Part shown: positions 3,296 to 62,133 of the stretch, one piece after another
Layout: the number at the start of each line of letters is the position of its first letter
How positions within the stretch are numbered: position 1 is the stretch's first letter
Assembly: GCA_044892505.1 (NCBI GenBank)
Contig: CM097882.1
Coordinates: forward strand, 574,182,001-574,246,000
Direction of reading: 5' to 3'
DNA from: Schmidtea nova
Taxonomy: Eukaryota
DNA length: 64,000 nt
Program-made: the position numbers and the translations under genes
The notes under the pieces: model-generated
What the model saw: the letters and a program-made list of their open reading frames with translations, nothing else
What the model was told of the DNA's origin: nothing
Database searches by the model: none

Positions 3296-3360
3296 TATTA
3301 ACTTTATTATTTCTCGTTCTGTGCTCATTTAAAAAAACTCAAAAAAATCAATATTCAAAA

Positions 3361-9995: not shown

Positions 9996-11379
<1,384 letters not shown>

Positions 11380-37738: not shown

Positions 37739-37746
37739 TATTTATA
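37739..37746 (-). promoter_or_regulatory. Candidate LTR TATA box (TATAAATA); copy in the 5' LTR at 63893-63900
   Basis: Identical in the sister LTR (~30339-30346). A CCAAT in reverse orientation lies ~25 nt upstream, and a candidate donor AAAG|GTAATT follows at 37637 (63791). Confidence 0.55.
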
Positions 37747-38876: not shown

Positions 38877-38949
38877 TTCTGATTATTCTACTGATTAATA
38901 CCTGTTACATCGATTTGTACATTTTTACACACGGATTTTTCGCCTCTTT

Positions 38950-40110: not shown

Positions 40111-40199
40111 TCTGCAATTTACAAATTTACACTTGTTACACTATGCGTTTATTGTTGTTGTCGATTTTTACAATTTATTTACAGGGTCGTTCACTCTGA

Positions 40200-41612: not shown

Positions 41613-41702
41613 TCTACAACAATATTTACATCAATTTCCCCATATTTTTGATTTTTTCTGGTTCTTTATTTACACGTATTTACACAATTTTCCGCTTATT
41701 CA

Positions 41703-42174: not shown

Positions 42175-45100
42175 CTATACGACTATCACTGGTTTTCCTT
42201 CGTACAGTTCCTCGTCTTCGATCTGTACCCACATCTCTTCGTGTTTCGATCGTCTTTTCAGCTCTTCTCGTACTTCTTTTGGTAGTTTTATGTTATAATT
42301 CATGACCTTTACGTCTGGCCATTTTACTGCTATGGTCTTATTTCTCATGCCATATCTCCAACATACTATCATGATCGTTATCAGTGGTATACACGCTATG
42401 AATACTCCCATGCTGATTAATCCCATTACTGTTTTTCCAATGCTCATTCTTGGAGTCTCACTTTGGTTTATCATCACGCCATATTGACCTTTCCATTCTG
42501 CTTCCCATTGTTCGTATTGTTGTTGTCTCCGTCTGACTTTTTCGATCACTTTCTCTGGTTCCCATTTTTCTTGTTGATTTGGTATTGTTTCTTCCTTCTC
42601 GTTTTGTTCTCTCTTCTGACTCAATTCTCGGAATTCTAACTTTTTGATTCTCCTCTTTATCGGTGTGTAGTAGGTTTCGCACCTTTCTTGTGGATTTCCT
42701 TGTGTATCCACTTCTTCAATTGCACACACCTCGTATTCTGCGTTTGTTTTCAACTTCCTCATTTCTACCTCGATTATTTCCTTTTTGTCATTTGATGTCT
42801 TTTGACAGTTTCGTGGAGACTTTCCCATACTGTTTGGCATTAATGTCCAACAGATTTCTAGGACCTTTTTATGGATCTTCCATATTATCAACGTTGTTGA
42901 TTCCGGTTCGTTTTCTATTGTCGTTCTTTCCGTTGTTGCCTGTTGAACTCCTTGACTGTTTGTTGTCGTGGTTCTTTTTGACTTTCTTTTCCTCTGTCGA
43001 CTTCCTCCCATTTCAATCGTTCTCGTTCCGTTAATTTGCTCTGGCGTCTTGTATAGTTTACATTCCGAGCTTCTTTGTATTATTTCTCTTATTCTTCGGA
43101 TTACGCAGATTTCGTAGGTTTGTCCGACTTCGAATCCATTTAGTTGAAACGGGATTCCTCGTTCTCTCGTTCTGCATTGCGGTATTATGTTGTTGGTCGA
43201 TACTCCGATGTATTTTCTCCAACACATCCCAATTGTTCTCCGACCAATATTTTTTATCTCCACGGTTACTACTTCATTCGCAATCGTTTCTTGATCTTGT
43301 TTCTTTCTTTTTGGGAACTCAATTATCTCCTTTGCTTGGAACACTTTACACTCGCTTGTTCCTGGTCTGTTTCCGTTTGCTGCCTTTTCCATGAGACATA
43401 GTTCATATTTTTTATCTGTCTCTATTTCTGTTATTTCGATTTCTTCATTTGTCTCTGCTTTTCGACTTTCTCTTGTTTCGCTGATTCCAATTACTTCATT
43501 GTTTCGTCCCCAACATCTTCCATTCGTTGTTCGTTGATCTTGGATGTTTACTAACGTCATCACGCTGATATCTATGTCCTCCATGATTCTCTTAATGAGG
43601 ATTAATATTAATGCTACACATATCAATTCTGGTTGGAATGTTAATTTGCCCGCTGGATTTTTGGTTATTCTTTCTTTCTCTGTTCGGTTTCTGATTCCTT
43701 CTTCTGCTTCAGATTGATTCTTCCCTTTCTCTGATTCCACTTCTGTTCTTCTCGTTGTCTCTTCGCTTCTTTTCTCAATCCATTTCTGTATCTTCAGCGC
43801 TTCCGTTGCTTTGTATAATTGGCATGCAGTTACTTGAGGTGCTTTTGGTTCTCCTCTCTGCTTTATTGCGCATATTATGTATGACTTTTCTTTCTCCAAT
43901 CCTTTGATTTGGATGACGTCTCGCTTCAGATCTGACAATATACACTTCAGCGTATCGTTTTTCTTCAGGTTTTCTTTCCAGCATATTCTTTCGTATACTT
44001 CGTTTCCTCTGATTATCTCTAGCGTGACGTATTGTTTCTTGGCTTCTCCTTGTCCGATGATTGTTATCAATATCGCGATACACAACATTTCTGGTCTCAA
44101 AAGTAGACTTCCTGTCCGTTTTCCATAATTCGTACGTTCGTCTTTTGTTCCACTGTTCTCTCGTTCTTCGGCTTCTCCTTTCTTGTCGTTTCTTGTTGGC
44201 TTTGGTTCTTCTTGTCTTTCTTTTTCATTATCCTCTGTTCTTTTGTTGTCATTGTCTTCGTTGTTCTTTTCGTTGTTACTTTTGTCGTCGAAGTCTCTGT
44301 AACCACCCCCTGGTCCTTTGAAAATGTCGTCCTCGACATTAATTCCTTCAATCAATCTTTCATACGTTTGAACCGCGAGTGTGCTAGACTCGAATTCCCG
44401 TATTTCCATGTCTTTGGATGGTTCTATGTCTTTTAGTCTACTTTGCTTGATCGCTTCTTTGGCATTTGCCCATTCATTCACATATTTTCTGAACAAGTCT
44501 TTCCATCTTCCCATTCGTTCCTGTTCCCTTGGGTTGTTCGTGAATTTCAAATCTCTTCTCTTCAAGAATTCTTCTACTATCTCTGGCTTTTTGTGTCTTA
44601 ATAACGCGCTTCTGATACACCAATTCTGATTCTGTTCCATATGGTCGTTGATCTTGAACACTGGTTCCTTGGTGATCGGATTCACCCATGTTAGTAATGC
44701 TCTCGTTTTCTCTATGTCGTGTATCATTACCGTCAGACTGAAATTCTTTACGTTATTTGCCAGGTATTCGATATCATCTTGTTTCTTGATGGACTTCATG
44801 AACTTGATCATCTCGAAGTTGTTCCACTGTATTGCGATATCTATGATGGAATTATTCTTTCCATTCTTCCCTTCGATTTTTGCTCCTGCTTCGTATAATT
44901 CATTTAGCACTTTCAACTTCGTCTTCTTTCTTGCTGCGATTATCATGATTGTATCTCCATTATCATCAACCGTATTCATATCTGCTTCGCACTTGACCAT
45001 TGTTTTCGTTATTTCTAACACTTCGTTTTCTTTCTTTCGACGTAATGCCCAGTGTATCGGCAATCTCCCATCCTTCGATAATAGGAATGCTACTGGTATT

Positions 45101-48100
45101 TGATTTTTGATCGTTTCTATGTCGATCTCGTTATAATCCCCTTGTGCATATCTGTGCATTTTCTCTGTAATCGCTCCTAATATTTCCAACGAGTTTTTAT
45201 TCTCTTTGAATTCCGATAATTTTTCCTGTGCTTTTGCTACGATTGCGTCTAATCTCTCTTGATGATCAGCTTTTGCATTGAACAACACTGCCTTGCTTCT
45301 TATTCGTGTTTGCATCTGTTTCATCCGTTGGTCTTGATACACTGCTTGTCTGAAGAATTGTCCATACTTCAATGCTTCCACCAGCTCTTTATATCGCTTG
45401 CTTATTTCTTTGTGCTGCTTTTGGATGTCATAAAAATGTTCGAAGCTCATATCCGGATTCCATTGCTTATCACACCATTTCTTGATTAATCCGAATAATT
45501 CTTTCTTTCTGTCTTCCAGCTTGTATTCTCTTGGGTTCTCGCTGACCCGTAGCGTATCTCTCGCTATCAACACTGCAAGTGTTTTTGGATCGTATGTTAC
45601 TTCTAGTAGATGTTTCAGTAACGTATTTTCTCCCTTTGTGAATACTTCATTACAATCTATGACCCACGAATCTCCTTCTGGTCTTTTCCACTTTAGCAAT
45701 ATCCTCCAGGTTTTACTGTTCTTTACCCCGATTGCTTGTTTCATGATCGATCCTCTAGTTAGTTCATCGATTTCCCACGTGGCATTTTCCGTAATATACT
45801 TCAGTATTCGGTGATTCGCTCTGTCAATTGCATGATTCAAGAATGTTCGTCCTTCTTTATCTTTTGTCATCCAATTCGATCTGGTGTTTCCGAATAGCTT
45901 GATTATTTCATTGTTTCTTCCGTGAATTGTCATCATCATAAGTGGAGTGATTCCTTCCCAATTCACTTTGTCAATTTCTCCTCCACCTTCGAGTATCATC
46001 TCCATGATCTCTTTCACTTTTTCGTTTCCACCGTGCTTGATTGCATTGTGCAACGCTGTGTTACCGTCTTTATCCTGTAAATTCAATGTTTGAGGGATTT
46101 CTTCCAGTAACGTTCTTGTAATTGGATGCGCTGTTCTGTCTTTTGCATACTCCATTACATTCTTTCGAACTTCTGACAGTATATGGAAATCGTGCCACCA
46201 TCTCCATTCCGGTATGATTTCTCTGGTTTTCTTTGCCAGTTCTTTGATGTCTATTATCTCCCTTCGGTTGTCCTCTAGACTGGTTTGCGGCTTTTGTTGT
46301 ACTCGTAACATATTAATTCTCGCCGTCTGTGATCTTGTCATCACCCGTTTCTCTGGTGATAGAGTTGCTGTCTTTGGTATTTTTCTGCATCGACATGCAT
46401 TCACGTATATTGGTCTTACCAATGGATTGTTCACCAATCGTACTCGCACATTATTTTCATTTACTGTTGTTATTTCGTATGGCCCTTTGCCTGGTCGTTG
46501 GAGTTTCTTGACCGTACCGGGTATTATCTCTGGTGTCTCAATTATCACCCAATCTCCAACTTTTAACTCATGTGCTTTCACATTCTTTTTCTGGTCATGC
46601 AGATCCTTGTAACTCTCTTGATAGAACTTGATGTTTAGTTCCGCCGTTTTCCAGATCTCTTGCATTCTTTCTTTGAACTTCGTCACGTAATCGTCAACCT
46701 CCATGTACTGTGATAATGGTGGTTGGTATTCTAAATCGATTGGTAAGTTGCAATCTCTTCCGTACATCAGTTGGAATGGACTTAGCTTTGTTGCCGCATG
46801 TATTGACATTCTATATGCCATTAAGCACAAGTTGATATATTCATCCCAGTCAGTTTGATGTTTACTGACGTAATTTGACAACATGCGTATCAATGTTCCA
46901 TTGAACCTTTCTGTTTGATCGTTCGTTTGTGGATGGTATGGGGATGTTCGTAATTTCGCAATTCGGAAGTAATTCGTGACCTCGTCTAATATTTCACTCA
47001 TGAAGTTCGTTCCTTGGTCCGTTAGGATTTTCTTTGGTGTTCCGTATCTGCAGCATATCTCTTCTACCAATATTCTCGCGACTGTTTTTGCTTTTTGATC
47101 TGGTATTGCGAACGCTTCTGGGAACTTTGTTAGATAGTCCGTGACTACTAAGATATATTGATTCCCTTTTAAACTTTCCGGCAATGGCCCAACTACATCC
47201 ATTGCTATCGTCGCCATAGGTTCCGCAGGTATTGGCATAGGTTTTAGTGGTGTTTTCCACTTCGTTCCTACGTTCTTTCTTGTCGCACAGGTTAAGCAGT
47301 TCTTTATCCATTCCTTCACATCATCTTCCATGGTTGGCCAAAAATACTTTTGTCTCAATCTCCCGATTGTCTTTTTCGCTGACATATGTCCGCCTAATTT
47401 TCCGTCATGATATTGAGTCATGATTTCCTTTCGCCTATTCGCAGGTAAGCACATCAATCTCCGTTCTCCATCCTGTATCAATAACCATCCTTTTTCCATC
47501 ACGTATCTATGTTGATATTTCTGCATATGTTCACGCAACACTTGGTTCTTGCCGAATATTTCCATTTCCCTTTCTTTCAAATACTTGCTGATCAATCCCA
47601 ACTCCTCATCTTCGAGTTGATCTTTCCTTAGTTCGCTGAAATCCAAATCCTCCGCTATTAATGCACATATTTTCAGAGCATTCAGGTTCACCAATTCTGG
47701 AAATGTAAACCTTGACATGCAATCCGCATTTGCATTTGCTTTTCCTGCTTTAAACTTTATGAACGGCGAGTATTCCTGTAACTGCATCGCCCAACGCATC
47801 AATCTACTTGATGATTCTTTATGTTGGCCTAACCATACTAGTGGTTGATGATCCGTCGTGATATATATTTCATGACCCCACAATAGGTATTTGAAATGCT
47901 TGATTGCCAATATTATCGCATAGGCTTCTCTTTCTGTGACTGAGTAATTCCTTTCATGTTTCCTGAACGTTCGACTATAATATCCGATTACTCTCTCTTT
48001 GCCTCCTTCATCAAATTGGCCTAGTACTGCTCCTGCTGCGTATCCACTTGCATCTGTTGCCAACAGAAATGGCTTCTTAAAATCTGGATGGACTAGTATT

Positions 48101-51100
48101 GGTGCTGTAATCAGCTTATCTCGCAATGTTTCAAATGCTGCTTGCTGTTCTATTCCCCATATAAACGACACATCTTGTCTTACCAATTCTTGCATTGGCT
48201 TTGATATTCCTGCATAGTCCTTGATAAACTTTCGATAATATCCACACAATCCCAAAAATTCTTGTATTTGAGTCACTGTCTTTGGTGGTGGACATTCTTT
48301 GACTTTCTCGATATTCCTTGGATCTGGTTCTTTTCCTTTTGCTGATACAATGTGACCTAAAAATGTCACTTTCTCTTTTGCCCAATCGCACTTTGACGGC
48401 TTCAATTTCAGTTTCCACTGTCTTAATTTCACGAACACATTTCTGATGTCTTGTAAGTGATCTTCGAATGTTGCGGAGTAGATCAATAGATCGTCGATAT
48501 ACACCATGCATTGCTTTATGCCATGTGTTACGAAATTCATGCATCTCTGGAATGATGCTGGCGCGTTTGTTAACCCAAACGGCATTTTCTTGAATTGGTA
48601 CAGATCTCGTCCGATTGTAAATGCTGTCTTCTCTTTATCCTCATCTTTCATTTTGATCTGCCAATATCCGCTTTTTAAATCCAGTGACGTGAAATAAGCT
48701 GCTCCTTGTAACGTCAATAACATTTCATTTATGTCTGGCAGTGGGTACGTATCTCTTTTCGTAACTGCATTCAATCGTCTGTAATCGATACAGAATCTCT
48801 GAGTTCCATCCTTCTTTTTCACCATCACCACTGGGAATTGCCAGGGTGAGCAACTAGGTTCGATGACCTCTGCATCTAACATCTTTTGTACCTCTTCTTC
48901 TGCCACTGCTTTTTGAGCTTCTGCCAATTTGTATGGTCGTAATGCTATTGGCGTTTCGTCCGTCAACGGTATCGTGTGTAATGTTACATCACATGTTCCC
49001 AGATCTAAATCTGATGCTGCGAATATATCTTTATATTCCATCAACAGTTTCTGTAACTGTTCTTTTTGTCGTTCGTCTAACAACACACTGTCGATTTTCC
49101 ATGGTAATTCGTCTTTGCTTTTCTCGTTCTTGTCTGGTATTTCGATTTCGGACATGGGTGTCAATTTACCCAATCTCTCATTCTCGTATATTATCTTGTC
49201 CTCTTCGTCGAAGTTTACCAGATTAATTGGTATCTCACCTTCTTGGTTTATCGTAACCAATTCTCTTGCCATTGGTAATTCTTTCTTTGCTTCGAACTTC
49301 TTACTGGGTTCGAATATCATATCTCCTTTGATTGTCGAATCGATCTTGACATAACACATCATTTCGTGTCTCGCTGGCACTACTATTTGTTCCGCACTTG
49401 CCACTTTAACTTTCATTCTGCAGATTTTTCCGGTTCTGTCTTTTAGCTTCATTGCTCCTAGATCAATTACGATTTCCTTGAACAGGTCTGGCATCAGGTC
49501 AGTTCCAATAATACATGGTACACTCAGCGATGGTATTACAGCGATGTACGTGTTGATTTCTGCACCTCGATGCTTAATTTTTACAAACCATCTTCCGGCT
49601 ACTTCTACTGTCTCTTGACTGCACGCGATTACATGTACATTCGTTTTCTCGATTTCTCCTTGGTTTTTCTCTGGTATATAGTTGATGTCGATTGCCGAAA
49701 TATTCGCGCCTGTATCGATCATAGCTTCAATTTCTCTTCCGTTTATTTCTACGGTTGTTGTTAAAATCGGTCCCATATTTGTGGACATAACTGCTATCGT
49801 GTGCGTGTCTTCTAACGAGTCTACGCTTTTACCTCGTTTTACTTTGCATCCTTCGGGAATTATCGGGTATATACTTGTCATCGGCATCATCTGCATCATA
49901 TTCGGCTTTGCTTTGTATATCGGTTCGTTATACATTGACTGAGGTGGAGCGCTGTATCTCCAATTCTCAACTGCACTCTTTTCAGTGTATTGTGGAATCT
50001 GGTTTATATTCGCTTGTCCTCCTCGATCGTCATCATCATCATCATCATTGCTTGAGTCATCCTGCGTTCGATATCCTCTCATTCTTTCCCATAATCCTTT
50101 CCTTTCTTTCTTTAGTTGTCGCCTTGCTTGTTCATCTTGCATTATCTTTTTGAATTTCCTTCCGACATCTTCATTTGTTCCTCTCATTTTTGCAAGTATC
50201 TTCAACAACCTCTTTATTCGATGTATGTCTTTTGAGTGTCCATGTAACACCATCGTTTTCGCAAGGAATGGTAAAAACCCTACTACCATTTTCCAATTCA
50301 CTTTCTTCTCTCTCTTGTAGATATCGAAACACGCTAACATCTGCGTTATTATCACTCTGACGATTTGTATTATCAATATAACTCCCAGTATTCCAGCCAT
50401 CATTTGTCCAAATATCAGGAATCTTCCCCACATTGCCTTCATCATATTTTCTGTGGCTTTCTTGAAATGTGCCGGTGACAACAACAGTTCGTAATTCGGT
50501 CCTTCTCGATAATTCGTTCCTCCCGTTATCGTTACGATATTTGACAGTAATGCTTCTCTTCTTGCCGGAAATAGTATATTCTGCCTTGCTGCCTCCAGAT
50601 CTTTTGGACTATAGATTCCGTTGTTTGAGACATCTACGTCACTGAACTGTCTATCCTTTGACAACTGCATTAGCTCAAATTCTCTTGGTGCTAATACTTC
50701 GGTTCTTCCTGGGAACATAACCCATTTGCCATCTGGCTTCTGATAAAGCGGTCCGTACGCATTACTACAGTTGAATGGATTTGGTTCAAATCCTGGTGGA
50801 TTGATGATTCTCGTCACCGGTTGAACGTATCGTACTTTTCCTTTATAATCGATTTCTAGTTCGTTTGTACATTGTCCAGGTTTCAACTGCGTTGTTGCTG
50901 CTAGCGATGCATGTGTCTTTTCGCAAATGTATACATACATTGCCTCTCCAACCACTCTTCCGAAATGTCCTTCTCTCAGTGGTAATAATGGCATCGCGCT
51001 ATCTGGATTCGTAATCGCTACGGCCAACTTTGTCTTTAATATTTCCCGATTCAGTATACAATCGTTATTTATCAGATCATAGTACACTTTTTGCAATGAG

Positions 51101-54100
51101 GCTTGTCCTCTATGGAATAAGAAATCCATTTTATTATTCACATACAAGTGTAGCTTGATATCCATTGTGTCGATCTTGGGTTTCGCATTCGGCACTTCTT
51201 GTTTCGACACGTATATTCCTGGATAGTTTGTTTCGTATACTGTTGTACTGCACTTAAGGGTTGCTTTCCCTTTTATGAATCTCATTCCCACATCCTGATT
51301 TGTGGTTATCAACACTGTTGGTGTGGTTCTCATCTCTATCCGTTTTTCTCTATGATCCGGTTTCAATTGTCTTTTATTCTCTAAAGCCTCTTTGAGATGT
51401 TTTGCTCTAGCTTTGTCATCATCGTCTTCTTCTTGGAATGTTTTCCCTTGAATTTCGTCAAACTTTGCTCCTTGTAGCAGTTGTAATTGACATTCGTTCA
51501 CTTTCGGTTTGTATATCAATGTTGACATTCCCGTTTGACACATGCTCCTGTCAATTTTACACATGGATAACGTTTTCATTTCTCCTGTTGTCGGTTCGAA
51601 GAATGCTTCGTAGCTTTTCAGTTCGACTATGTATGTGTCCATTACCACTAAGTTGGTTGCAGGTACTCCAAATATTGGGTAGGTTTCTCCTTGACAATAT
51701 CCTTCTCCTCCCGTAATCCGTCCTGCTACATAATATGTCTGCTGTAACATCATTCCTGGCTTTCCTCTTATCTTGATTTTATCTCTTGTTGTTACTTCTC
51801 CATGTTTGAATAATGCTTCACAGTCTTCTCCTTGCAACACGATTGGTTCTCTTTCCGTTCCTGGCATGACAATTGCTGAATAATGTCCTCTCCCGCAATA
51901 GAATGCGAATCTCGTCTTTTGCACTTTGCATTCATTCACCATTGTCTTTATTAGTTCTGCCTCTTGATACACGTGGTACCATTGTTCCTTTTTAATCTCT
52001 CTCAACTCTACTGGAGTTGCATCTTTGCATTGCTCCGTACCTCTCAATGAGTACTTTTCTCCTAACTTCATTTGATCACAATCAAATACCTCAAATGTTG
52101 TTACACCTTCCGTGCTTAACAACCATACTAACATCATCATGATTATCGAGTTTAAATTCAACGTCGATCTTCCGTTTCCTTGCATCGTTTGTCTATTCTC
52201 CATTTCCCTCAATACTCCTTCGAGTTTCTTTCTCATCACGTTAGCACCTTCTTTTGTCTGGTTTTCTTTTACAAATTTTTCCCATCCTCCTTTTCTGAGG
52301 ATATATGGTTCAATTTCCTTCTCCATAATCATCGCCGTATTTTTGATATGTCTTCCCATCGGACTTGACTTCGGACTCCCTCGGCTTAGCGTTAGTAGAT
52401 TGTATATCGTATACGAGATTGCTACCAGATATTTGCTATCCGTCTCTGCTCCGTTAAGTAGCCTTTTTATTAACATCGTGGTTCCTTGCCAATCTAGATG
52501 ATTCGCTTTTGTTTTTGCCTTTATCAATTCTGGCATAATCGGTGCTATCGCATTGTGTAGCATCCTTGCCTTTGTACTGGGTTCGTTTATCCGCCACAAA
52601 TTCTTTAATTCTGGATCAATTATCGCTAACACATCCATTATCGTTTTGGTGAGCCATTCCTCTCCTTGGCAGACTTGATTCTCCTCTTTTCCTCTGGTCT
52701 CTGCGATTTTATCCAGTTTCTTCAAGCAAATCTCCCATTGCTCTTGTCTCCTTTCTTCTCTTGACTTTGGAATTGCTGTTGCTGGATCTATCTTTGGTCT
52801 TCCTCTTGGTCGTTTTTCCATTCCAGTTCCGGTTTCTACAAATCTCGTTGCTCTTCCTGTTTCTTCCGTAACATCCCTTCCTTCGTTTGCTCGTTGTTCT
52901 AACCATCTTTCCATTTCTTGAGTAAACTGTGGTTGTTCTTGCTCGTCTTCCGAATCGTTTACCATTTCTATGACTACCTCCTGTTCCACTCCTTGATCGT
53001 CGATTTCTGCTGGTGACGTTATTGGCATCTCTATTATTCTGTCGAAAATATTCGCCGTTGGTTTTTGAGTCAACTTCGTTAGTTCTTCTATCGCTTCGTC
53101 ACTGTCTGTTAGTATCTCATCGACGTCATACGCTTCTGGCGGTGTTCTCTCTCTCGTTTTGATTGGTGTTGTCCTTGTTTGTCCCGAACTTGTTCCTGGG
53201 GTCATTGTTGACTTCATCGGACTTGGTGTACTCATGCTTCCTTTCGCTTTCTTTTCCTCTTTAAACTTCAGTGGTTGACCCACTATTTGTGCCACTGTTA
53301 GCGTATTCATTAGATCCAATTGCACTGGTGTCAGCCAGATTTCCAAACTATTATCCAACGATCGTCCTTGATGTTGCAGGTGGAATGGTAGTTCGTACAT
53401 CAGTTTCTCTTTAACACTTTTCACTTTTTCTGTTAGCATCACCCAAAACTCTTCTTTTCTCTGATTCGGATACATTATCCTCAAATGTATTTTTTGTGGC
53501 GTTTCCTCCGCAAACTCTTTGTTTCTCCACTTTTTTATTACATCGTCTAGTTGCTCTGGACACCACTCGTTAACTCTCTTGTATTCTGCTATCGCTTTAG
53601 CTACTTTTCTCAAGTTCGTTATGTCTTCTCCATTTGAGATTATAAATTGTGCTAAGCCTTTTATTGCTTGTCTTTTTCCCCGAGTATTTCCTCTCAACAG
53701 CTCGATCAATTCACTCGTTTTCTGTTTCTCCAGTTCTGCCCATATTACTGCAGTTTCTGGTCCGTCTAAGTCCGTTGGTAATAACCTCCTTGTTACCATA
53801 CATATCCGTTTCGTATTCCGTTCATGTCTGTCTTCTCCTTCCGGATCTTCTTCATACACGCCTCTTTTCACTTTCCAACATTTCTCTTTGTTATCCCATT
53901 GCTTCTCTACTGGCGTCAATCGTCGTCTGTTAAGATCCAATTCTCCCAATATTGTCTCCCATTCTGGCTTCATCTGCCAGTTCCGATAGATTTCTACTAT
54001 CTGTCTCAACTTGCGCATAACGTCCTCTTGTCGTGCCTTTTTCCTTTCCTCATCTTTTGGTGTTGCTCTTGGCACATCATCCATTCTGATGACATGTATT

Positions 54101-57060
54101 GTCTGATAATTATCCCATATGCCGATTTTATACGCTCGTCTTTCATCGCGTTCATTCAGTAGATGTTCTTTGTATTTTATAGCGATGTCATCCTCAAATT
54201 CGTCTTCCCGTTCTCGTTGTAATATCGTCTCATTGATGACATCTACTATTTCTCCCACTTTACTATCTGGTATTACCTCAATTTGTTTTGTCTCTTCGTT
54301 TGGTAATCTCACGGTAATCTTCAGATCTGATACCTCTCCTCGTTTAAACATTTCTTTTCCCATCTTTGCGATTAGCTTATCCGTTTTGAAATTTGAATGT
54401 CTCGTTTGACTTGTATCTCGTATGTTCTCGATACACTGTTTCAAATTCTCATACTCGCTTTTCGTCAATTCCTTTCGATGTTTCTTGATTTGTTGGATGA
54501 TCTGTTCTATCATCGTATTCAAATTCTCCGCCAAGATTCTTTCCTTTGCCTCCATCAACTGAGGTTTTATTCTCATCTCATAACACGTATTCGCTTCTTT
54601 GACGATTCCTTGTAAGTTCTCTTCCTTCTTGGTGTTGCATATTGATAACGTTGTTATTTCTCCTGGCCATATGCCTGTGTCTATCATATGCGTTCCTTTT
54701 CTCACCAATCCGTTTTCCGAATATATGAACTTGTCTTTGTACGAGCTTCCCAATCTGTCCTCAACCCATCGGTAAATTCCGTCTGTCATTGGGTTCCTTA
54801 TCCAGATTCTCGGTGAACACTCGTTTATCCATATCTGTATTATGTATTCGTTGAGTGGTTCTTTTAGAAGCTTCTCAATCAATTCTTGTATTACTCTCAC
54901 TTCTCTTTCTTGTAACCACTCTTTATACTTCATCTGCCATACTGCTCGTATGAACTTTCGGTATCGTTTCTTGTCAATAAACTCCTCGTTATGAATTACT
55001 TCCAACGCGTTATCCATCAGCTTCTGAATTTCGTCTTCCTTTACTGACATCGTTTCTATCGTCTCGACTACTTCCATCTTTTTATCCTCGTTTTCCGGTT
55101 CCTTTAGCATGTCTCCTGCCAGACTGCTAACTTCGCTGTCGTCTTCTTCATCTGACAACTCTTGTCTTGGGTGTCTCAGCATCCCAATATGCGCGGTTGG
55201 TCTCGCTTTGTTTTTGCTAACTTCTTGTATTAGTTCATTCTCGTTTCCTGTTACTTCAGCTTTTCCCATTCTTTTCTCCAATTCGTCTATTTCTTCCAAC
55301 CGTCTTCGTCTTATTTTTCCCTTGAATATTCGACTGATCCGAGTTTGGTGTTTCACTGGTGGTGGGATTTTTTCCGGTTCCACCTCTCTGATGATCATCA
55401 CGTTTATTTTCGTTTCTGTTACTCCCATATCTTCCCATATATCAGTCATCTTTAACTTCACTTCCGGTAAATCTTCTGTTTGTAGGAAGGCTTCTCTGGG
55501 CAGTTTCGTCACTCCCGGGATCATCTCATTTACTTTATTGAACAATCTTCCCACTTCTTCTTTTACATCGTACTTGAATCGCCACACGTGATCATTCGGC
55601 ATGATCACCAACATTCCTCTTTGTTTGATTCTCACCTCCTCTTCTTGATTCGTTTCTTTTTCTGTTTCTTTTTCTTTTTCTACTTCTTCATCCTTTTGAT
55701 TCTGCTCTGCGGCTTCTACTTCCTGATTCACTTCTTCTTGTTTCTGCTCTTCGTTTCTTTTCTCTTTAATTTCTAACTCGTCTGATTCATCCTGCTGCTT
55801 CTCTTCCATCATTGCTCGCATCATGTTGATCCTTGGATTTCCCTTTTTTAACTGTTGTAATCGTTGTTGTCTGACTTGTTCTTCTTCTCGTCGTACTCTA
55901 GCCCATTCTTGATTATGTTTCTGTTGGCTTTCTCTATTCTCCCTTTCGGCTTCAGCTTCTATTAACTGGATCATGTTTATCTTTGGTTGAGCAGCTTGCT
56001 GGCTTCCTTTTGCCATGCTTTCTATTATCTCGTGTAATCTGGATACCTCTTGTCTCAACTTTGCTTCTTTCATACTGGCTTCGTTTGCACTGCTGTTTGG
56101 GTTGTTCCGTTGTTGACCTTGATTCCCATAGCTTGGTCGATTCCCGTAATTCTGTCTATTTCCATTGTTTGACCAACTTCTCTGCTGATTACACTCTCTT
56201 GACATGTGTCCCGTTTTCCCACATGTATAACACGTTTTCACATAACATCGATTTTCTGAGTGACCTTTTTGTCCACACAGTTTACAGGCTACATTCTGAA
56301 AACAATCTTGTTGCCAATGTCCGTTTTTCCCACACGTCTGACATTGCCTATTCTGCCTGTCATTGTAACTATTTCCTCCATTCGTATTCACCGTAATATA
56401 TCCGTTATTCTTCCTCGCTGGCGGTTCTTTGAACAATCTCTGCGAATGGGGAATACTTTGATTCATGTTTCTTTTTCCTTGTTCTTCATCTTCTGTCGTT
56501 TTTCCCATTACCGCCGTAATTCTCATGTCATTCATTGCCATATGCAATTCGAATAGGTTGGCTGCTTCCAACGCTTCATCTACTGTTTTACATCCTTTGC
56601 ATCCCACTTGTGCTCTGATGTCAGGTCTCCTGAGACCTCGTACAAATAACGCTGTCATCAATTCCTCATCTACTGGGCTTCCTCTATTGAATGCCAGTTT
56701 CGCCAACTTCCTTAATTCACTTGCGTACACCGCATTTGACTCATTTCTCCTCTGTTTTCTTGCTGAGAACTCATCGAACGCTTCATTCAGCACTTTGTTT
56801 ATCCCAAACGTCTGTTGGAAGAATTCCTTGATCGCTTCCCACGTTCTGGGTGGATTACTTCCCGATCTCTTCTCAATATACAGATCCAACGCGCTATCTT
56901 TCAAGTATAGCGGGATTCGATTCGCTAACGTTTCTGCACTCCATCCGCATATATCCACGAATATGTCAAATTCCTTCAGAAACGTATCCAATCTACTGGC
57001 GTCTCCATTGAATGGTTCGCCCTTGAATTTTTCTCTCAGATCCTCTCTGTGTTCACTCAT
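42175..57060 (-). CDS. 4961-aa polyprotein: Gag, Ubl x2, Bcl-2-like, Env (class III), PR, RT, RH, IN, ANK, FN3-like x4, TM
   Basis: CCHC knuckles at 56191-56343; AMIDTGA at ~49710; YIDD at ~48495; LATDASG (RH); HDGKLGGH..CLTC, MDVVG, LTDQG, ERFN, GPY (IN). No stop or frameshift in 14.9 kb. Confidence 0.96.
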   Translation of the reverse strand: MSEHREDLREKFKGEPFNGDASRLDTFLKEFDIFVDICGWSAETLANRIPLYLKDSALDLYIEKRSGSNPPRTWEAIKEFFQQTFGINKVLNEAFDEFSARKQRRNESNAVYASELRKLAKLAFNRGSPVDEELMTALFVRGLRRPDIRAQVGCKGCKTVDEALEAANLFELHMAMNDMRITAVMGKTTEDEEQGKRNMNQSIPHSQRLFKEPPARKNNGYITVNTNGGNSYNDRQNRQCQTCGKNGHWQQDCFQNVACKLCGQKGHSENRCYVKTCYTCGKTGHMSRECNQQRSWSNNGNRQNYGNRPSYGNQGQQRNNPNSSANEASMKEAKLRQEVSRLHEIIESMAKGSQQAAQPKINMIQLIEAEAERENRESQQKHNQEWARVRREEEQVRQQRLQQLKKGNPRINMMRAMMEEKQQDESDELEIKEKRNEEQKQEEVNQEVEAAEQNQKDEEVEKEKETEKETNQEEEVRIKQRGMLVIMPNDHVWRFKYDVKEEVGRLFNKVNEMIPGVTKLPREAFLQTEDLPEVKLKMTDIWEDMGVTETKINVMIIREVEPEKIPPPVKHQTRISRIFKGKIRRRRLEEIDELEKRMGKAEVTGNENELIQEVSKNKARPTAHIGMLRHPRQELSDEEDDSEVSSLAGDMLKEPENEDKKMEVVETIETMSVKEDEIQKLMDNALEVIHNEEFIDKKRYRKFIRAVWQMKYKEWLQEREVRVIQELIEKLLKEPLNEYIIQIWINECSPRIWIRNPMTDGIYRWVEDRLGSSYKDKFIYSENGLVRKGTHMIDTGIWPGEITTLSICNTKKEENLQGIVKEANTCYEMRIKPQLMEAKERILAENLNTMIEQIIQQIKKHRKELTKSEYENLKQCIENIRDTSQTRHSNFKTDKLIAKMGKEMFKRGEVSDLKITVRLPNEETKQIEVIPDSKVGEIVDVINETILQREREDEFEDDIAIKYKEHLLNERDERRAYKIGIWDNYQTIHVIRMDDVPRATPKDEERKKARQEDVMRKLRQIVEIYRNWQMKPEWETILGELDLNRRRLTPVEKQWDNKEKCWKVKRGVYEEDPEGEDRHERNTKRICMVTRRLLPTDLDGPETAVIWAELEKQKTSELIELLRGNTRGKRQAIKGLAQFIISNGEDITNLRKVAKAIAEYKRVNEWCPEQLDDVIKKWRNKEFAEETPQKIHLRIMYPNQRKEEFWVMLTEKVKSVKEKLMYELPFHLQHQGRSLDNSLEIWLTPVQLDLMNTLTVAQIVGQPLKFKEEKKAKGSMSTPSPMKSTMTPGTSSGQTRTTPIKTRERTPPEAYDVDEILTDSDEAIEELTKLTQKPTANIFDRIIEMPITSPAEIDDQGVEQEVVIEMVNDSEDEQEQPQFTQEMERWLEQRANEGRDVTEETGRATRFVETGTGMEKRPRGRPKIDPATAIPKSREERRQEQWEICLKKLDKIAETRGKEENQVCQGEEWLTKTIMDVLAIIDPELKNLWRINEPSTKARMLHNAIAPIMPELIKAKTKANHLDWQGTTMLIKRLLNGAETDSKYLVAISYTIYNLLTLSRGSPKSSPMGRHIKNTAMIMEKEIEPYILRKGGWEKFVKENQTKEGANVMRKKLEGVLREMENRQTMQGNGRSTLNLNSIIMMMLVWLLSTEGVTTFEVFDCDQMKLGEKYSLRGTEQCKDATPVELREIKKEQWYHVYQEAELIKTMVNECKVQKTRFAFYCGRGHYSAIVMPGTEREPIVLQGEDCEALFKHGEVTTRDKIKIRGKPGMMLQQTYYVAGRITGGEGYCQGETYPIFGVPATNLVVMDTYIVELKSYEAFFEPTTGEMKTLSMCKIDRSMCQTGMSTLIYKPKVNECQLQLLQGAKFDEIQGKTFQEEDDDDKARAKHLKEALENKRQLKPDHREKRIEMRTTPTVLITTNQDVGMRFIKGKATLKCSTTVYETNYPGIYVSKQEVPNAKPKIDTMDIKLHLYVNNKMDFLFHRGQASLQKVYYDLINNDCILNREILKTKLAVAITNPDSAMPLLPLREGHFGRVVGEAMYVYICEKTHASLAATTQLKPGQCTNELEIDYKGKVRYVQPVTRIINPPGFEPNPFNCSNAYGPLYQKPDGKWVMFPGRTEVLAPREFELMQLSKDRQFSDVDVSNNGIYSPKDLEAARQNILFPARREALLSNIVTITGGTNYREGPNYELLLSPAHFKKATENMMKAMWGRFLIFGQMMAGILGVILIIQIVRVIITQMLACFDIYKREKKVNWKMVVGFLPFLAKTMVLHGHSKDIHRIKRLLKILAKMRGTNEDVGRKFKKIMQDEQARRQLKKERKGLWERMRGYRTQDDSSNDDDDDDDRGGQANINQIPQYTEKSAVENWRYSAPPQSMYNEPIYKAKPNMMQMMPMTSIYPIIPEGCKVKRGKSVDSLEDTHTIAVMSTNMGPILTTTVEINGREIEAMIDTGANISAIDINYIPEKNQGEIEKTNVHVIACSQETVEVAGRWFVKIKHRGAEINTYIAVIPSLSVPCIIGTDLMPDLFKEIVIDLGAMKLKDRTGKICRMKVKVASAEQIVVPARHEMMCYVKIDSTIKGDMIFEPSKKFEAKKELPMARELVTINQEGEIPINLVNFDEEDKIIYENERLGKLTPMSEIEIPDKNEKSKDELPWKIDSVLLDERQKEQLQKLLMEYKDIFAASDLDLGTCDVTLHTIPLTDETPIALRPYKLAEAQKAVAEEEVQKMLDAEVIEPSCSPWQFPVVMVKKKDGTQRFCIDYRRLNAVTKRDTYPLPDINEMLLTLQGAAYFTSLDLKSGYWQIKMKDEDKEKTAFTIGRDLYQFKKMPFGLTNAPASFQRCMNFVTHGIKQCMVYIDDLLIYSATFEDHLQDIRNVFVKLRQWKLKLKPSKCDWAKEKVTFLGHIVSAKGKEPDPRNIEKVKECPPPKTVTQIQEFLGLCGYYRKFIKDYAGISKPMQELVRQDVSFIWGIEQQAAFETLRDKLITAPILVHPDFKKPFLLATDASGYAAGAVLGQFDEGGKERVIGYYSRTFRKHERNYSVTEREAYAIILAIKHFKYLLWGHEIYITTDHQPLVWLGQHKESSSRLMRWAMQLQEYSPFIKFKAGKANANADCMSRFTFPELVNLNALKICALIAEDLDFSELRKDQLEDEELGLISKYLKEREMEIFGKNQVLREHMQKYQHRYVMEKGWLLIQDGERRLMCLPANRRKEIMTQYHDGKLGGHMSAKKTIGRLRQKYFWPTMEDDVKEWIKNCLTCATRKNVGTKWKTPLKPMPIPAEPMATIAMDVVGPLPESLKGNQYILVVTDYLTKFPEAFAIPDQKAKTVARILVEEICCRYGTPKKILTDQGTNFMSEILDEVTNYFRIAKLRTSPYHPQTNDQTERFNGTLIRMLSNYVSKHQTDWDEYINLCLMAYRMSIHAATKLSPFQLMYGRDCNLPIDLEYQPPLSQYMEVDDYVTKFKERMQEIWKTAELNIKFYQESYKDLHDQKKNVKAHELKVGDWVIIETPEIIPGTVKKLQRPGKGPYEITTVNENNVRVRLVNNPLVRPIYVNACRCRKIPKTATLSPEKRVMTRSQTARINMLRVQQKPQTSLEDNRREIIDIKELAKKTREIIPEWRWWHDFHILSEVRKNVMEYAKDRTAHPITRTLLEEIPQTLNLQDKDGNTALHNAIKHGGNEKVKEIMEMILEGGGEIDKVNWEGITPLMMMTIHGRNNEIIKLFGNTRSNWMTKDKEGRTFLNHAIDRANHRILKYITENATWEIDELTRGSIMKQAIGVKNSKTWRILLKWKRPEGDSWVIDCNEVFTKGENTLLKHLLEVTYDPKTLAVLIARDTLRVSENPREYKLEDRKKELFGLIKKWCDKQWNPDMSFEHFYDIQKQHKEISKRYKELVEALKYGQFFRQAVYQDQRMKQMQTRIRSKAVLFNAKADHQERLDAIVAKAQEKLSEFKENKNSLEILGAITEKMHRYAQGDYNEIDIETIKNQIPVAFLLSKDGRLPIHWALRRKKENEVLEITKTMVKCEADMNTVDDNGDTIMIIAARKKTKLKVLNELYEAGAKIEGKNGKNNSIIDIAIQWNNFEMIKFMKSIKKQDDIEYLANNVKNFSLTVMIHDIEKTRALLTWVNPITKEPVFKINDHMEQNQNWCIRSALLRHKKPEIVEEFLKRRDLKFTNNPREQERMGRWKDLFRKYVNEWANAKEAIKQSRLKDIEPSKDMEIREFESSTLAVQTYERLIEGINVEDDIFKGPGGGYRDFDDKSNNEKNNEDNDNKRTEDNEKERQEEPKPTRNDKKGEAEERENSGTKDERTNYGKRTGSLLLRPEMLCIAILITIIGQGEAKKQYVTLEIIRGNEVYERICWKENLKKNDTLKCILSDLKRDVIQIKGLEKEKSYIICAIKQRGEPKAPQVTACQLYKATEALKIQKWIEKRSEETTRRTEVESEKGKNQSEAEEGIRNRTEKERITKNPAGKLTFQPELICVALILILIKRIMEDIDISVMTLVNIQDQRTTNGRCWGRNNEVIGISETRESRKAETNEEIEITEIETDKKYELCLMEKAANGNRPGTSECKVFQAKEIIEFPKRKKQDQETIANEVVTVEIKNIGRRTIGMCWRKYIGVSTNNIIPQCRTRERGIPFQLNGFEVGQTYEICVIRRIREIIQRSSECKLYKTPEQINGTRTIEMGGSRQRKRKSKRTTTTNSQGVQQATTERTTIENEPESTTLIIWKIHKKVLEICWTLMPNSMGKSPRNCQKTSNDKKEIIEVEMRKLKTNAEYEVCAIEEVDTQGNPQERCETYYTPIKRRIKKLEFRELSQKREQNEKEETIPNQQEKWEPEKVIEKVRRRQQQYEQWEAEWKGQYGVMINQSETPRMSIGKTVMGLISMGVFIACIPLITIMIVCWRYGMRNKTIAVKWPDVKVMNYNIKLPKEVREELKRRSKHEEMWVQIEDEELYEGKPVIVV
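50245..52160 (-). other. env: Envelope domain: chuvirus/Monjiviricetes-type class III fusion glycoprotein
   Basis: Internal signal LNSIIMMMLVWLLSTEG; FEVFDC..YSL...C; CGRGHYSAIV; LAVAITNPD; GEAMYVYIC; CTNELEIDY...YVQPVTRII; GIYS..DL..ARQNILFP; TM at ~50345-50425 followed by an amphipathic segment. Confidence 0.8.
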
Positions 57061-57938
57061 CCCGATTCCACTGTCTTGGAATACTGTACTAATTTTCTTT
57101 GCTTCTAGTTCACCACTTGTTTCTGAATTTGACTTTTCTTCTTCACTACTCTCTGTTTCGTTATCTCTTGATTCGTTTCTTGTTCTGTTTTCCCTGACTA
57201 GTTCACTGTCTATCGTCTCTACTTCGTTTTGTACTGCTAGATCTTCTGGGGTTTCTTCTTGGTTCTCTTTATTACTCGAATTATCGCTGATCTCTACTTG
57301 TTTGTTCTTTTGTTGCTTCGGCTTGTTACCTGTTCTTGTCCTTTTTGCTGCTTTTCTTTCTGCTTCCGTTAAGATTGGTATTATACCTGATCTTGTTTCT
57401 CGTCCCTCAATTTTGTCTATTCCTCAACTGCTTATATTCTCAACTGCTTTTCTACTCCGCTTTTGCTTTGCTTCTTCTTTGATTTGTTTCTTTTGATTGC
57501 TCTGACTGCTAGATTGCTTTGAATTGCTTGATTGATTTGTTTCCTTAAAACAAATAATCACTTACACGATACGTCCCCGTTATCGTGTTTCTCGTCCCTC
57601 TCACGGGTGTAGTCATAATTCATGAAGATCCCCATTTTTCCCATTTCCCTTGATTTTAAGTCTATTTAAATTATCTATGCAGTCGTATCAATTATCTATT
57701 CTTTATCAAATGCACCAATTACTTTTCCCCAGTTTCCCAATTACTTTGTCGCTCAGCGCTCTTATTATTCCCTTTACTTTTTCTCAGGCTTCTCTGGCTC
57801 TGAGTTCAAATCTCCCCTTATCTGTCAACTACTCTATTTCTCAACTATTCGCTTTATCTCTTGTTCGCACTACGTTTACTACTTCATTTCAATTCTCCTC
57901 TCTACTCACCTTTAATTTCAACTGACATCTCTCGTTGG

Positions 57939-58404: not shown

Positions 58405-58730
58405 CCCTTCACTTACTCACTTTACTTTATTACTCCTTTGTATGCATACTTTATCATCATTAGGCCACATAATCAGCTTTACTCGCATTTATCAATACCC
58501 AGGTGCGCACCTTCAACTCTCACATTATTATCTCGGTTTCTTTCAACCCTTATTCCTCATTATTCGCTATTCATTTTCACTATTCATCATTTATCCTCAT
58601 TATCATTTATTCATCTCCATTATCGCTTATTGATCTTCACTATCCGGATAGTTTTATGCTTTATTTAGTCCTCATCTGCCTCACTTCGTCGTCTTTCTCG
58701 TGGGCTTTTACTCGATATTTTATTTCAAAC

Positions 58731-58958
58731 GAGAACTATGCTCACTGCTGAGAACTATGCTCACTAACGAGAACTATGCTCAATGACGAGAACTATGCTC
58801 ACTGACGAGAACTATGCTCACTGACGAGAACTATGCTCACTGACGAGAACTATGCTCACTGACGAGAACTATGCTCACTGACGAGAACTATGCTCACTGA
58901 CGAGAACTATGCTCACTGACGAGAACTATGCTCACTGACGAGAACTATGCTCACTGGC
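58731..58958. repeat. Tandem array of 12 x 19-bp GAGAACTATGCTCACTGAC; degenerate interspersed copies continue to ~59290
   Basis: Exact 19-nt period from 58731, then about nine further variant copies separated by short spacers. Confidence 0.95.
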
Positions 58959-59982
58959 AAAACATGGTTGTTATGATGGTTTTGCTTACTGATGGAAACT
59001 CTTTGCTCCGGGGCTTATGTTCCCCGATGAGAACTATGCTCACTGATGGTGACTACAGGAATTATGTTTCCTGATGAGAACTAAGCTCACTACGATGACT
59101 ATGTTTATTAATGAGAACTACGCTCCCTGATGAGGACTATGTTCGCTTGTCTTGTGTTTATTAATGAGAACTCTGCTCACTACGAGAACTATGCTCACTA
59201 TGGTGTTGTGTTTTATGACGAGACCTACGCTCACTAGGATGTTACGTTTTATGACGAGACCTATGCTCACTATGAGACCTATGCTCACGAACGAAAACTC
59301 GAAATATCATCTCTCAGTGGTTGCATGTGTTGCTTCGGGATGTTCCTCCCAGTGGTCACTTATGCTTCTTCGGAGAATCTATTGTCGCGTTTCGTTAAGT
59401 TCTATCTTTCAAGAACTATGGGCAAATCCTTTCTCTCTAGGACCCCTTTTATCATTTCCTTTCTTTCAAGGATTTCCTTTAACCTCGAGTTTTCCATTGA
59501 CTCGGTTCATCTGTTATACCCCTTTATTCTATTATCGATTCGTCAACCTTTCTACTTGATTTTACCTTATGCGAGCTGATTACGTGCCTTTCATCATATA
59601 CCACATTTATCCACTTTTAATATTCATTTCCTCACTCTCCTTCTCTACTGATCAGTTTATCTTCCTATTTTTATAGTTTTTCTGCGCGCGCCTAACCTCA
59701 TTGAGTTGTCCCTACCTTTCACCCCAACCAAAATATATAAAAAGATCGCATTGGTCCACTGATGCACGATGTGGTGATCAGTCACATCACAAGAGCTTTC
59801 CAATATCCGCGATTGGATCCCTTTCTACACATCTCGGGTGAGTTGATCAGTTGGTTCCCCCCAATGGGTGCTTAACGGACTACTCGTAGGTAGCTCATAA
59901 TTACTTAGGTCATTTTTACCAAATCATTTTTAAACCCTCATAATTTCAATAACAACTGCACTTGTTCCAAACTTTATTTCTA

Positions 59983-60441
59983 TTACAAGTACACTGTTAT
60001 TTTCTCGGATACGGGAAGGTTGCACATAGGACATCGTTCGTTTATTTTACATTCATTACAGAATCGAAAATGCCCACACGGCAACAACATTATCTGTATT
60101 TTGTTTATTTCACAGATGTAACACGTCAAATACTGTCTCGTATATTCGGTTGTCGTTCTTATCCACTCATCGTGTTTTGTTGCAATCTGTTGTTCTAGCC
60201 TGTGGCACTCGATATTCATTTCAGGGTTGTTTAATCGCTCTCTATACCACTGATATCGTGTTGCTGTATCCACTGTTATCTTATTCTCGCTTATGCTCAT
60301 CATTATTTCAGCTCTTTCTGTGTTGTTTGTCGGTTCGTGATATCCTCCTACCTCGAGTTGTTTTAACTTTCTCATTACTGTCTCCACCGCCTCGTTGTTT
60401 GTCTCGAAAAACGTTTGCATTTCTTTTATTTTGTTCTCCAT
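59983..60441 (-). CDS. 152-aa protein with a C-terminal IAP/MDM2-type C3HC4 RING
   Basis: CYICEINKIQIMLLPCGHFRFCNEC...CPMCNLPVSEKITVYL at the extreme C-terminus; CAG 3 nt before the ATG; AATAAA 5 nt after the stop. Confidence 0.85.
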   Translation of the reverse strand: MENKIKEMQTFFETNNEAVETVMRKLKQLEVGGYHEPTNNTERAEIMMSISENKITVDTATRYQWYRERLNNPEMNIECHRLEQQIATKHDEWIRTTTEYTRQYLTCYICEINKIQIMLLPCGHFRFCNECKINERCPMCNLPVSEKITVYL

Positions 60442-60970
60442 CCCCTGAATGGATTCTCATTAATTTTGTTATCGATTTTTATTTATCATTTATTATTCCT
60501 ATTCTATGGTAGCCCTACTGTTCGGTTTTTGTTGTTCTATTTCGCGCCACTGCGTATCCCCCCGTGTTCTTGAATGTCGCCCCGACATGATCATTGTTAG
60601 TTGCTCACACTCATACCATTTTCATGCACACTTTTCAGCATACTTTTACCTTACGTCATGCATACTTTTCATCACTTTTCATACTGTTATTCCACATACT
60701 ATTCCTCATACTTCATTCATCCCCATACTTACATTCCATTATCATTCATACTTTCATTCTCATGCATACTTTCATCACGTTCATCAATCTCATTATTTTG
60801 CACTCATACTTTTATTTATTATTTTTCAACCCGATTCGTTCTTGCTTCAGGACCCTCAAACCCTCTATTATTTACTTTACTTTTCCTCGCTAAATTCAAT
60901 TCATCCCGGTTCAGGCGCTCTAAACTGTCCGCAGATATCGAATTCACTTTTTCCCACAAAGATCGATTTA

Positions 60971-60988
60971 ATCCCGGCTGAGCCCCCA
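60971..60988 (-). promoter_or_regulatory. Primer binding site, tRNA-Pro type (TGGGGGCTCAGCCGGGAT)
   Basis: 6 nt from the 5' LTR end; 16/18 match to the known MLV tRNA-Pro PBS TGGGGGCTCGTCCGGGAT. Confidence 0.88.
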
Positions 60989-61378
60989 AATTTATGCTGG
61001 TGTGTTGGTTAGATTGACAACTGAGATCATTAGGATTTTATCTGTTAGGGTGATCTCGCCAACATAAAAACATTTCCCCCGCTGACACCCATGATGTATC
61101 CCTAACTACTCATCATGTTGGTGCTGTGTCAACGTTGTGAAATGACAAGGCAGGTGAGCAACCTTTCGGCTACTATTCCCTTGTTTATTCACGGGTCCAC
61201 CACTACCGATAGAAGGTGTTTGTGGCTTTCTTTCGGTCCCACTTATGCTCTTTACTTTGCTCTAGGGTAAGTTAATTTCAGCGCATCTGCAGTTTAAATG
61301 AATCCGGGTTTTATCTACCTTCAATTTTCAGACATTCCACAAACAAACAAGACAAGTCAAATCATTCATTTTATACAT

Positions 61379-61942: not shown

Positions 61943-62133
61943 CTCTGTAAAATGTATCATTAATCGGGTTATGTATGGTTTGTCTGTTCTCTCAGTCACT
62001 ATCTTTATTATCAAACAGGTGTTTCACTCTCAGATCGCCTCATACATTCAAAGACATAACAAAACCCAAAAATTAATACATTTATTTTTAATACACATCA
62101 AATATTCCTTCGATGGATCGGTTTCCTTGCGAT

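Follow-up and report, generated by a model that had tools for sequence, protein, structure and literature searches.

We analysed a window of 64,000 nucleotides from Schmidtea nova (GenBank assembly GCA_044892505.1, contig CM097882.1, positions 574,182,001 to 574,246,000 of the forward strand; "the window" is this whole stretch, and coordinates count from its first letter). Its minus strand carries a long terminal repeat (LTR) retroelement that fits a recently inserted, intact Burro-type Ty3/gypsy element, in which the gene of a virus-like envelope glycoprotein (env) lies in frame between gag and pol. We put at roughly 0.6 the probability that this element makes one multi-spanning polyprotein and that its Gag, Env and Pol come together on one membrane. 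The domain order, the class III fold, the conservation, the selection on Env and the env exchange come from the analysis itself; the steps that join them are inferred and are worded as a model below.

Gag, Env and Pol share one open frame

Pfam scans of the longest frame of the element returned, in this order, Gag, Monjiviricetes_fusion, protease (PR), reverse transcriptase (RT), RNase H (RH), integrase (IN) and ankyrin repeats (ANK). The parts of the frame up to the ankyrin repeats are the following (aa, amino acids; TM, transmembrane; dG, approximate insertion energy):

42175..57423, minus: single polyprotein frame, stop-to-stop, 5,082 codons free of N; codon 122 (57060) is the first Met
56164..57060, minus: Gag, capsid-type domain plus three CCHC knuckles (aa 361-411); PF03732 E 3.8e-6, PF00098 E 2.1e-9
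52249..52656, minus: Bcl-2-like helical segment with a GGW motif, ending ~30 aa before the signal
52096..52161, minus: predicted internal signal peptide 1, h-region aa 1755-1776, dG -0.1, from homology and hydrophobicity
50407..52095, minus: Env ectodomain, aa 1777-2339 (563 aa), 14 Cys, one sequon, class III chuvirus-G/gB-like
50350..50406, minus: predicted Env TM helix, aa 2340-2358, dG -0.36, a long helix in the model
50239..50301, minus: second hydrophobic segment, dG +3.6, predicted not to cross the membrane
49474..49767, minus: aspartic protease, DTG at 49716 (aa 2570); PF00077 E 5e-9
48346-48822, minus: RT core, PF00078, YIDD at aa 2975
47770-48159, minus: RNase H, PF17917
46384-47445, minus: integrase with GPY motif, PF17921 and PF00665
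44794..46095, minus: ankyrin repeats, PF12796 E 1.5e-19

The anatomy given in a preliminary description of this locus, namely an internal signal peptide, a Cys-rich ectodomain of ~560 aa, a TM helix and a DTG protease in the same frame, was recovered in full. Its placement of Env between Gag and protease was right as to order, but the signal does not directly follow Gag: it lies ~1,340 aa past the last CCHC knuckle (aa 411). Likewise, the DTG shares the frame but stands 212 aa past the Env TM rather than ~180, a figure that was probably counted from the second, weaker hydrophobic segment (~175 aa).

Within the ~1,340-aa spacer, the Bcl-2-like segment owes its label mainly to the literature; its matches were below threshold (E 0.17-0.4, with PF00452 at E 0.17 in a family C relative and a PDB BCL-2 structure at E 0.33), and two further searches for it returned no match. 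A test for a ubiquitin-like segment in the spacer gave a match to RA_2 at E 0.09, and the Pfam scan of the polyprotein found no dUTPase-like segment. Among database relatives, P0002, P0006, P0007, P0008, P0009 and P0020 show DTG/DSG motifs of protease type at two to four places beyond Env, and in P0008 one of these lies after the integrase.

We then compared copies and families in the same genome, where the window's family is called A and the others are C, D and a 3.4-kaa family. All 78 env matches scored, from 3,588 candidates, were 99-100% identical, 75 of them free of stops. Twenty of the 78 lie in stop-free frames of 5,076-5,091 aa (some of the 78 rows may belong to family D), so the Gag-Env-Pol frame is not an assembly artefact. 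Family D (77% nucleotide identity) has the same order in one frame, with three of ten fetched 9.9-kb stretches open throughout and the rest broken by stops or frameshifts; family C (46% aa identity) and the 3.4-kaa family (two of three fetched copies open, one with a stop) also keep the order in one frame. Four families thus keep the gag-env and env-pol junctions open in a single frame, even though A and D have diverged almost to saturation at synonymous sites outside env. Moreover, of 15 long database relatives that we scanned, 11 have a protease or RT domain after Env in one chain, and the expectation that the order would recur in other copies was borne out. Nematode elements (NERVs) reportedly also form one continuous open reading frame (ORF).

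The copies closest by protein (L002-L010) are 99-100% identical in Env aa and only ~96% identical in DNA, which suggests many diverged, selected lineages rather than one burst. Depth over env was doubled in four contig runs of one study, and 24-mer counts were 292 for env, 131 for gag and 124 for the ankyrin region. An env-only satellite was considered as the source of this excess and rejected: all ten fetched places without a listed gag or ankyrin match nearby proved to be full family D elements. Downstream of the polyprotein of the 3.4-kaa family, L022 carries a 483-aa ORF (2351-3799, plus strand) with what we take to be DEDDh exonuclease-like motifs.

Env has the fold of a class III viral glycoprotein

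The window Env matched PF24664 (Monjiviricetes_fusion) at E 2.2e-73, far beyond chance. A structure model of aa 1774-2410, built with 115 aligned sequences, reached a predicted local distance difference test (pLDDT) score of 88 and showed a gB-like multi-domain fold with a long central helix (318-365). Its best matches among solved structures were herpesvirus gB ectodomains (E 1.9e-14, TM-score 0.35-0.41) and among viral models in BFVD chuvirus-type G proteins (E 4e-41, TM-score 0.56-0.64), while a sequence search of the ectodomain against the PDB gave no match (best E 0.57). These data support Env as a class III, chuvirus-G/gB-like fusogen by modelled fold, with fusion activity as a prediction, and agree with the class III, chuvirus-like nature proposed for it beforehand.

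A phmmer search with Env returned 792 representatives with E values no higher than 0.001; long polyproteins with 29-47% identity came closest, followed by many proteins of 620-700 aa. We aligned 23 rows, 19 from elements and four from stand-alone glycoproteins of 645-679 aa. A hydrophobic stretch occupies the signal position in 23/23 rows and is followed by a small-x-small motif and an [FY]DC ectodomain start; in the window the predicted peptidase cut falls after VTT (aa 1776), before FEVFDC. In the four stand-alone proteins the aligned stretch is the N-terminal signal, which argues that the internal signal is the captured gene's own. The second hydrophobic segment after the TM is also conserved in relatives and in stand-alone viral G. 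A furin-like REKR in a flexible loop was dismissed as a family trait, being present in the four A and D rows, with R-x-x-R in one more, and absent from the other 18 of 23.

Env is under purifying selection and has been exchanged between families

Ratios of nonsynonymous to synonymous change (dN/dS) between the window's element and L015, a copy of a 95% identical subfamily, were 0.03 for the ectodomain, 0.04 for the signal region, 0 for the TM region, 0.04 for RT and 0.12 for the spacer. Against family D the ectodomain gave 0.02-0.03; over both comparisons the TM region gave 0-0.01 and the Gag spacer 0.12-0.15. Env is thus under strong purifying selection, as judged from an ectodomain dN/dS of 0.02-0.03.

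The comparison with family D was uneven along the frame. In three D copies the ectodomain is ~98-98.6% identical in amino acids to that of A, with a proportion of synonymous differences (pS) of 0.29-0.31, whereas pS outside it (spacer, signal, tail, PR, RT, RH, IN) is 0.63-0.91. At 4-fold sites, D copy L026 differs from A at 32/222 positions in env (14%), 117/218 upstream (54%) and 191/314 downstream (61%); Fisher tests of env against its flanks gave p 1e-18 and 1e-28, respectively, and the other two D copies agree. The tree path lengths show the same pattern, with A-D at 0.08 and A-C at 0.13 for RT but 0.011 and 0.89 for Env (the latter from a quick tree). Synonymous or RNA constraint inside env was rejected as the cause of this likeness, since against L015 the 4-fold sites differ alike in env and flanks (24/225, 43/378 and 17/238) and no env dip is seen. 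The tract concerned is:

50200..52090, minus: tract exchanged with sister family D (L024-L033), double crossover

Its 5' crossover lies near 52090, within aa 1770-1780, and so coincides with the predicted peptidase site, and A and D each keep their own signal; its 3' crossover is diffuse, at about 50200-50080. A recent exchange of Env as a cassette between families A and D is therefore well supported by these sequence comparisons, and template switching after co-packaging of both RNAs would be its simplest route.

Between A and C (L018) the Env TM and the next segment (window aa 2332-2400) are 90% identical, and the ectodomains share 50%. Constraint at this membrane region would have to be unusually tight; an exchange between A and C was considered there and is not supported, as synonymous codons differ in it as elsewhere.

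A second predicted membrane module follows the integrase

Beyond the integrase and the ankyrin repeats, the same frame encodes a module for which the preliminary description had no place and by which Pol would be held to the membrane from its far side as well:

42175-44115, minus: second predicted signal peptide, four FN3-like repeats and TM
44044..44100, minus: internal signal-like segment 2, predicted cut after GEA (aa 4460)
42655..44043, minus: four Cys-bearing FN3-like repeats of ~90 aa each, with paired Cys
43588-43638, minus: third signal-like h-region, between FN3-like repeats 1 and 2
42358..42414, minus: predicted C-terminal TM helix, then a basic 60-aa tail

Repeat 3 was modelled as a beta-sandwich (pLDDT 80, six strands in an 87-aa model), and its list of structure matches was filled by FN3 chains (VIA Z 7.6, moderate because under 8; rmsd 2.8 A over 76 aligned residues; Foldseek E 0.02). 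Pfam fn3 was found in 3 of 22 repeats (best E 0.008), and an Atlas fn3 match at 0.81 serves as a lead only. Each of these lines is moderate and together they are concordant, so that assignment of the repeats to FN3, a beta-sandwich domain of ~90 aa with a motif of the L-x-P-x-T-x-Y type, is moderately supported by the models. A homologue search for the module retrieved 0 of 6,248 candidates at near lengths.

Family C has the module once, with four repeats, family D has it twice in tandem, and the 3.4-kaa family has a signal-330 aa-TM module in its place. Four database proteins were inspected, and the three that reach past the integrase all have a signal-ectodomain-TM arrangement; in P0014 the last TM is weak and no FN3 motif was seen. 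Thus, all the relatives examined whose sequence extends to this point have a signal-ectodomain-TM counterpart, and this second surface module is apparently undescribed. Its identity between A and D is 36-39%, against 98-98.6% for Env; the module diverges fast, and a function in attachment or host modulation may be proposed.

A proposed membrane-organised polyprotein and its alternatives

Topology was predicted with a home-made hydrophobicity and insertion score that uses approximate scale values and no control set. Five segments of the polyprotein score near dG 0 (aa 1755, 2340, 4442, 4596 and 5004), and all others lie above +3. Because only a single crossing is predicted between ectodomain and protease, Pol would lie on the cytosolic side, in keeping with the earlier proposal of a Pol tethered to the cytosolic Env tail. 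The companion proposal, that signal peptidase releases Gag, needs correction: this enzyme cuts on the luminal side of the membrane, so its cut would free Env and leave the Gag-spacer anchored by the signal. The capsid precursors of flaviviruses and hepaciviruses stay tail-anchored likewise. Cellular Bcl-2 proteins carry a C-terminal tail anchor, and the Bcl-2-like segment may be placed in the same way relative to the Gag-spacer anchor.

In the model that we favour, Gag and its spacer would be made in the cytosol until the captured viral G signal, now internal, brings the ribosome to the endoplasmic reticulum (ER). Signal peptidase would free the Env N-terminus, and the signal would stay on the Gag-spacer as its tail anchor; Gag itself lacks the Gly at position 2 that myristoylation requires. 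Transfer would then be stopped by the Env TM, which would leave PR-RT-RH-IN-ANK cytosolic on the Env tail, after which the second internal signal would send the four FN3 domains into the lumen, to be anchored by the last TM. Gag, Env and Pol would meet on one membrane, Pol entering the budding particle on Env, with no need of a Gag-Pol frameshift; the parts would be separated by the protease of the element or by an intramembrane peptidase. Env would be needed in the replication cycle, most simply for entering another cell. The polyprotein mechanism put forward earlier is plausible in outline once Gag is corrected, with splitting by splicing as a possible complication and the processing predicted from sequence.

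Several points weigh against this model. The topology depends on the home-made score described above, and the FN3 arrangement holds only if the translocon lets the third h-region (aa 4596) through. Retroviral Gag:Env:Pol ratios are far from 1:1:1, the ratio that a single polyprotein yields, and some regulation is probably missing from the model. Protease clustered on Env trimers in the ER could be activated too early. Finally, the window's own family has Met codons just before the signal (aa 1741 and 1747).

The last of these points also bears on a different expression strategy, in which the unbroken frame is expressed in pieces: splicing or internal starts would yield separate messages for Gag alone and for an Env-Pol with the signal at its N-terminus, the full polyprotein being a minor product. 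Such an arrangement would solve the stoichiometry problem, and the 3' accessory ORFs (TRAF and others) would presumably need sub-genomic messages anyway. Yet a Met within ~25 aa before the signal was seen by eye in only 9 of 19 element rows, and not in the other ten, so there is no conserved separate Env start; none of the intact copies seen has a stop codon that would end Gag; and the sole slippery heptamer near the signal (aa 1756), considered as a frameshift site, was rejected as it is not kept in family D. We regard split expression as unlikely, though it deserves serious attention.

An improbable variant accepts the polyprotein as described but has Env act only intracellularly, through budding into the ER or endosomes and fusion back, or between touching cells, as in cell-cell fusion, with no free infectious particle. 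Purifying selection and env exchange reveal that Env is used and not where, all copies examined are genomic, and co-packaging could take place inside one cell; a complete class III fusogen accompanied by a fast-evolving FN3 surface module would nevertheless fit an extracellular step better. A last alternative, in which Env is mere captured cargo whose frame stays open solely to avoid stops that would truncate Pol, is very improbable and already largely refuted: its position alone would purge stops and frameshifts but not amino-acid changes, and its dN/dS is below that of the spacer and as low as that of RT, with the 14 Cys and the fold intact.

Carried further, the membrane-organised polyprotein leads to a tentative proposal, on balance doubtful, that Gag-Env-Pol elements are infectious agents of a retrovirus-like kind that enter cells with two glycoproteins, both cut from one multi-spanning polyprotein. 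The conserved class III cassette, traded between families, would serve as fusogen and a fast-evolving FN3 type I membrane protein, at the usual env position, in attachment or host modulation; Pol would be tethered on both sides, the Env signal would hold Gag, and the membrane would organise assembly in place of a Gag-Pol frameshift. The locus yields exact predictions, namely five membrane segments, two peptidase sites, a Gag anchored by the Env signal and a Pol between two anchors. Selection on Env and its exchange between families offer indirect evidence for a role of Env in the replication of a still-mobile element, and, if the FN3-TM protein holds across the clade, current annotations leave out a second surface protein.

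Relation to described elements

The gene order is already in print. An env in frame between gag and pol was described for Burro (Arkhipova & Yushenova 2019, PMC6431247), and Gag-Env-Pol elements with a gB-type Env are reported from Nematoda, Bryozoa and Platyhelminthes (Chary & Hayashi 2026, PMC13524379, which cites Sacco 2022, PMID 35550022, for those of nematodes). What is added here to an order known since 2019 is the signal register, the selection on Env, the env cassette exchange and the FN3-TM module.

According to the passages on Burro/GYPSM1 in PMC6431247, these giant planarian Ty3/gypsy elements share with ours a length of ~30 kb, one ORF of ~5,000 aa, a Gag with three CCHC knuckles, Env and protease in frame after a region that is BCL2-like in Burro and putatively so here, ankyrin, MATH/TRAF and RING domains, tandem repeats and an Env that matches mononegaviral fusion proteins. 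The window element (29,461 bp) is slightly under the >30 kb given there, and its TRAF has an ORF to itself beyond the end of the polyprotein, in contrast to a position inside it in Burro1 and upstream in the D. tigrina element. The same passages name no signal peptide, topology, FN3-TM module or env exchange.

The GAG-ENV-POL errantiviruses of PMC13524379 have in common with our element the gene order, a gB-type class III Env, signal and TM flanks and multi-copy intact elements. That screen kept LTR spacings of 5-14 kb, a range that leaves out 26-kb elements; the words fibronectin, FN3, ankyrin and polyprotein have 0 matches in its main text. Env recombination is described there as infrequent, whereas the window element points to a recent family-to-family exchange. 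The literature searched yielded no description of the FN3-TM module, of the processing model or of a Burro env exchange; Grohme 2018, Jurka 2007, Sacco 2022, figure panels and eLife supplements lie outside this coverage and may bear on the point.

Chuvirus and other Monjiviricetes G proteins and gB share PF24664 and the fold with the window Env, and its signal, YDC motif, TM and second hydrophobic segment are in register with viral G. The window Env differs in being internal to a retroelement polyprotein, in its identity of 16-21% to the viral proteins and in a tail that continues into Pol. The same glycoprotein family occurs on LTR elements of mosquitoes of BEL/Pao type (Dezordi 2020, as cited in PMC13524379), and the preliminary description mentions capture of such genes by BEL/Pao elements; the window element has a Ty3/gypsy Gag (Retrotrans_gag, PF03732), PR-RT-RH-IN order and a GPY integrase motif, and fits a Burro-type element. 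Pfam scans of it listed no BEL/Pao-type Gag or Pol families, as judged by Pfam markers of that group and without a tree containing named BEL/Pao references. Given the positive Ty3/gypsy matches, BEL/Pao membership is unlikely.

Boundaries, accessory genes and neighbourhood of the element

The element occupies 29,461 bp, with two 3,307-bp LTRs that have TG...CA ends. Outside the polyprotein frame it comprises:

60995..64000, minus: 5' LTR, 3,307 bp, extending 301 bp beyond the window end
62134-62829 (231 aa) and 61379-62023 (214 aa): ORFs within the 5' LTR
60971..60988, minus: primer binding site-like stretch, begins TGG, 6 nt inside the 5' LTR
59983..60456, minus: accessory ORF with C-terminal RING finger, PF13920 E 5e-9, upstream of the polyprotein
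58718..58966, no strand given: tandem array of a 19-nt unit in the leader
40200..41630, minus: accessory TRAF-like ORF (RING, zinc fingers, MATH), PF22486 E 1e-25, downstream of the polyprotein
38352..40140, minus: two accessory ORFs downstream of the TRAF-like ORF, both kept in family D
38950-40140, minus: the first of these, 396 aa, coiled-coil-like
38352-38882, minus: the second, 176 aa, with signal/TM
34841..38147, minus: 3' LTR, with the 4-bp target-site duplication GTTA at 34837-34840

The LTRs are 100% identical over 3,009 nt in the window and 301 nt past its end, which together with the 4-bp duplication indicates a very young insertion. The Burro-type assignment was made by architecture, not by sequence identity to Burro1-4. 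We take the primer binding site-like stretch to resemble a tRNA-Pro site. A GP41 match on the 176-aa ORF (E 0.004, below the cut-off) was put down to coiled-coil chance, and the Pfam scan of the element found MATH and RING but no BIR domain.

On the opposite strand to the element, 29943-32100 (plus) holds a diverged LTR piece, 75-87% identical to the element's LTR, with the LTR-internal ORF kept (219 aa). L014 and L015, which were found through this piece, are 95% identical to the window element internally; taken together, these likenesses suggest LTR exchange between subfamilies. The adjacent 32198-34157 matches the 3' end of family C stretches L020 and L023 at 68-90% and is probably a family C LTR remnant, in which case the young element adjoins older LTR debris. 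Further features were recognised by eye, namely a 512-aa RT ORF with a GIY-YIG-like C-terminus (Penelope-like) at 21710-23919, flanked by ~290-bp inverted repeats that are 91% identical, and, on the plus strand, an ordinary gypsy element, now broken, and two remnants of hAT-like transposases (13888-17230, 19521-20846 and 26463-28530) and a beta-tubulin-like open frame of 424 aa at 10105-11379.

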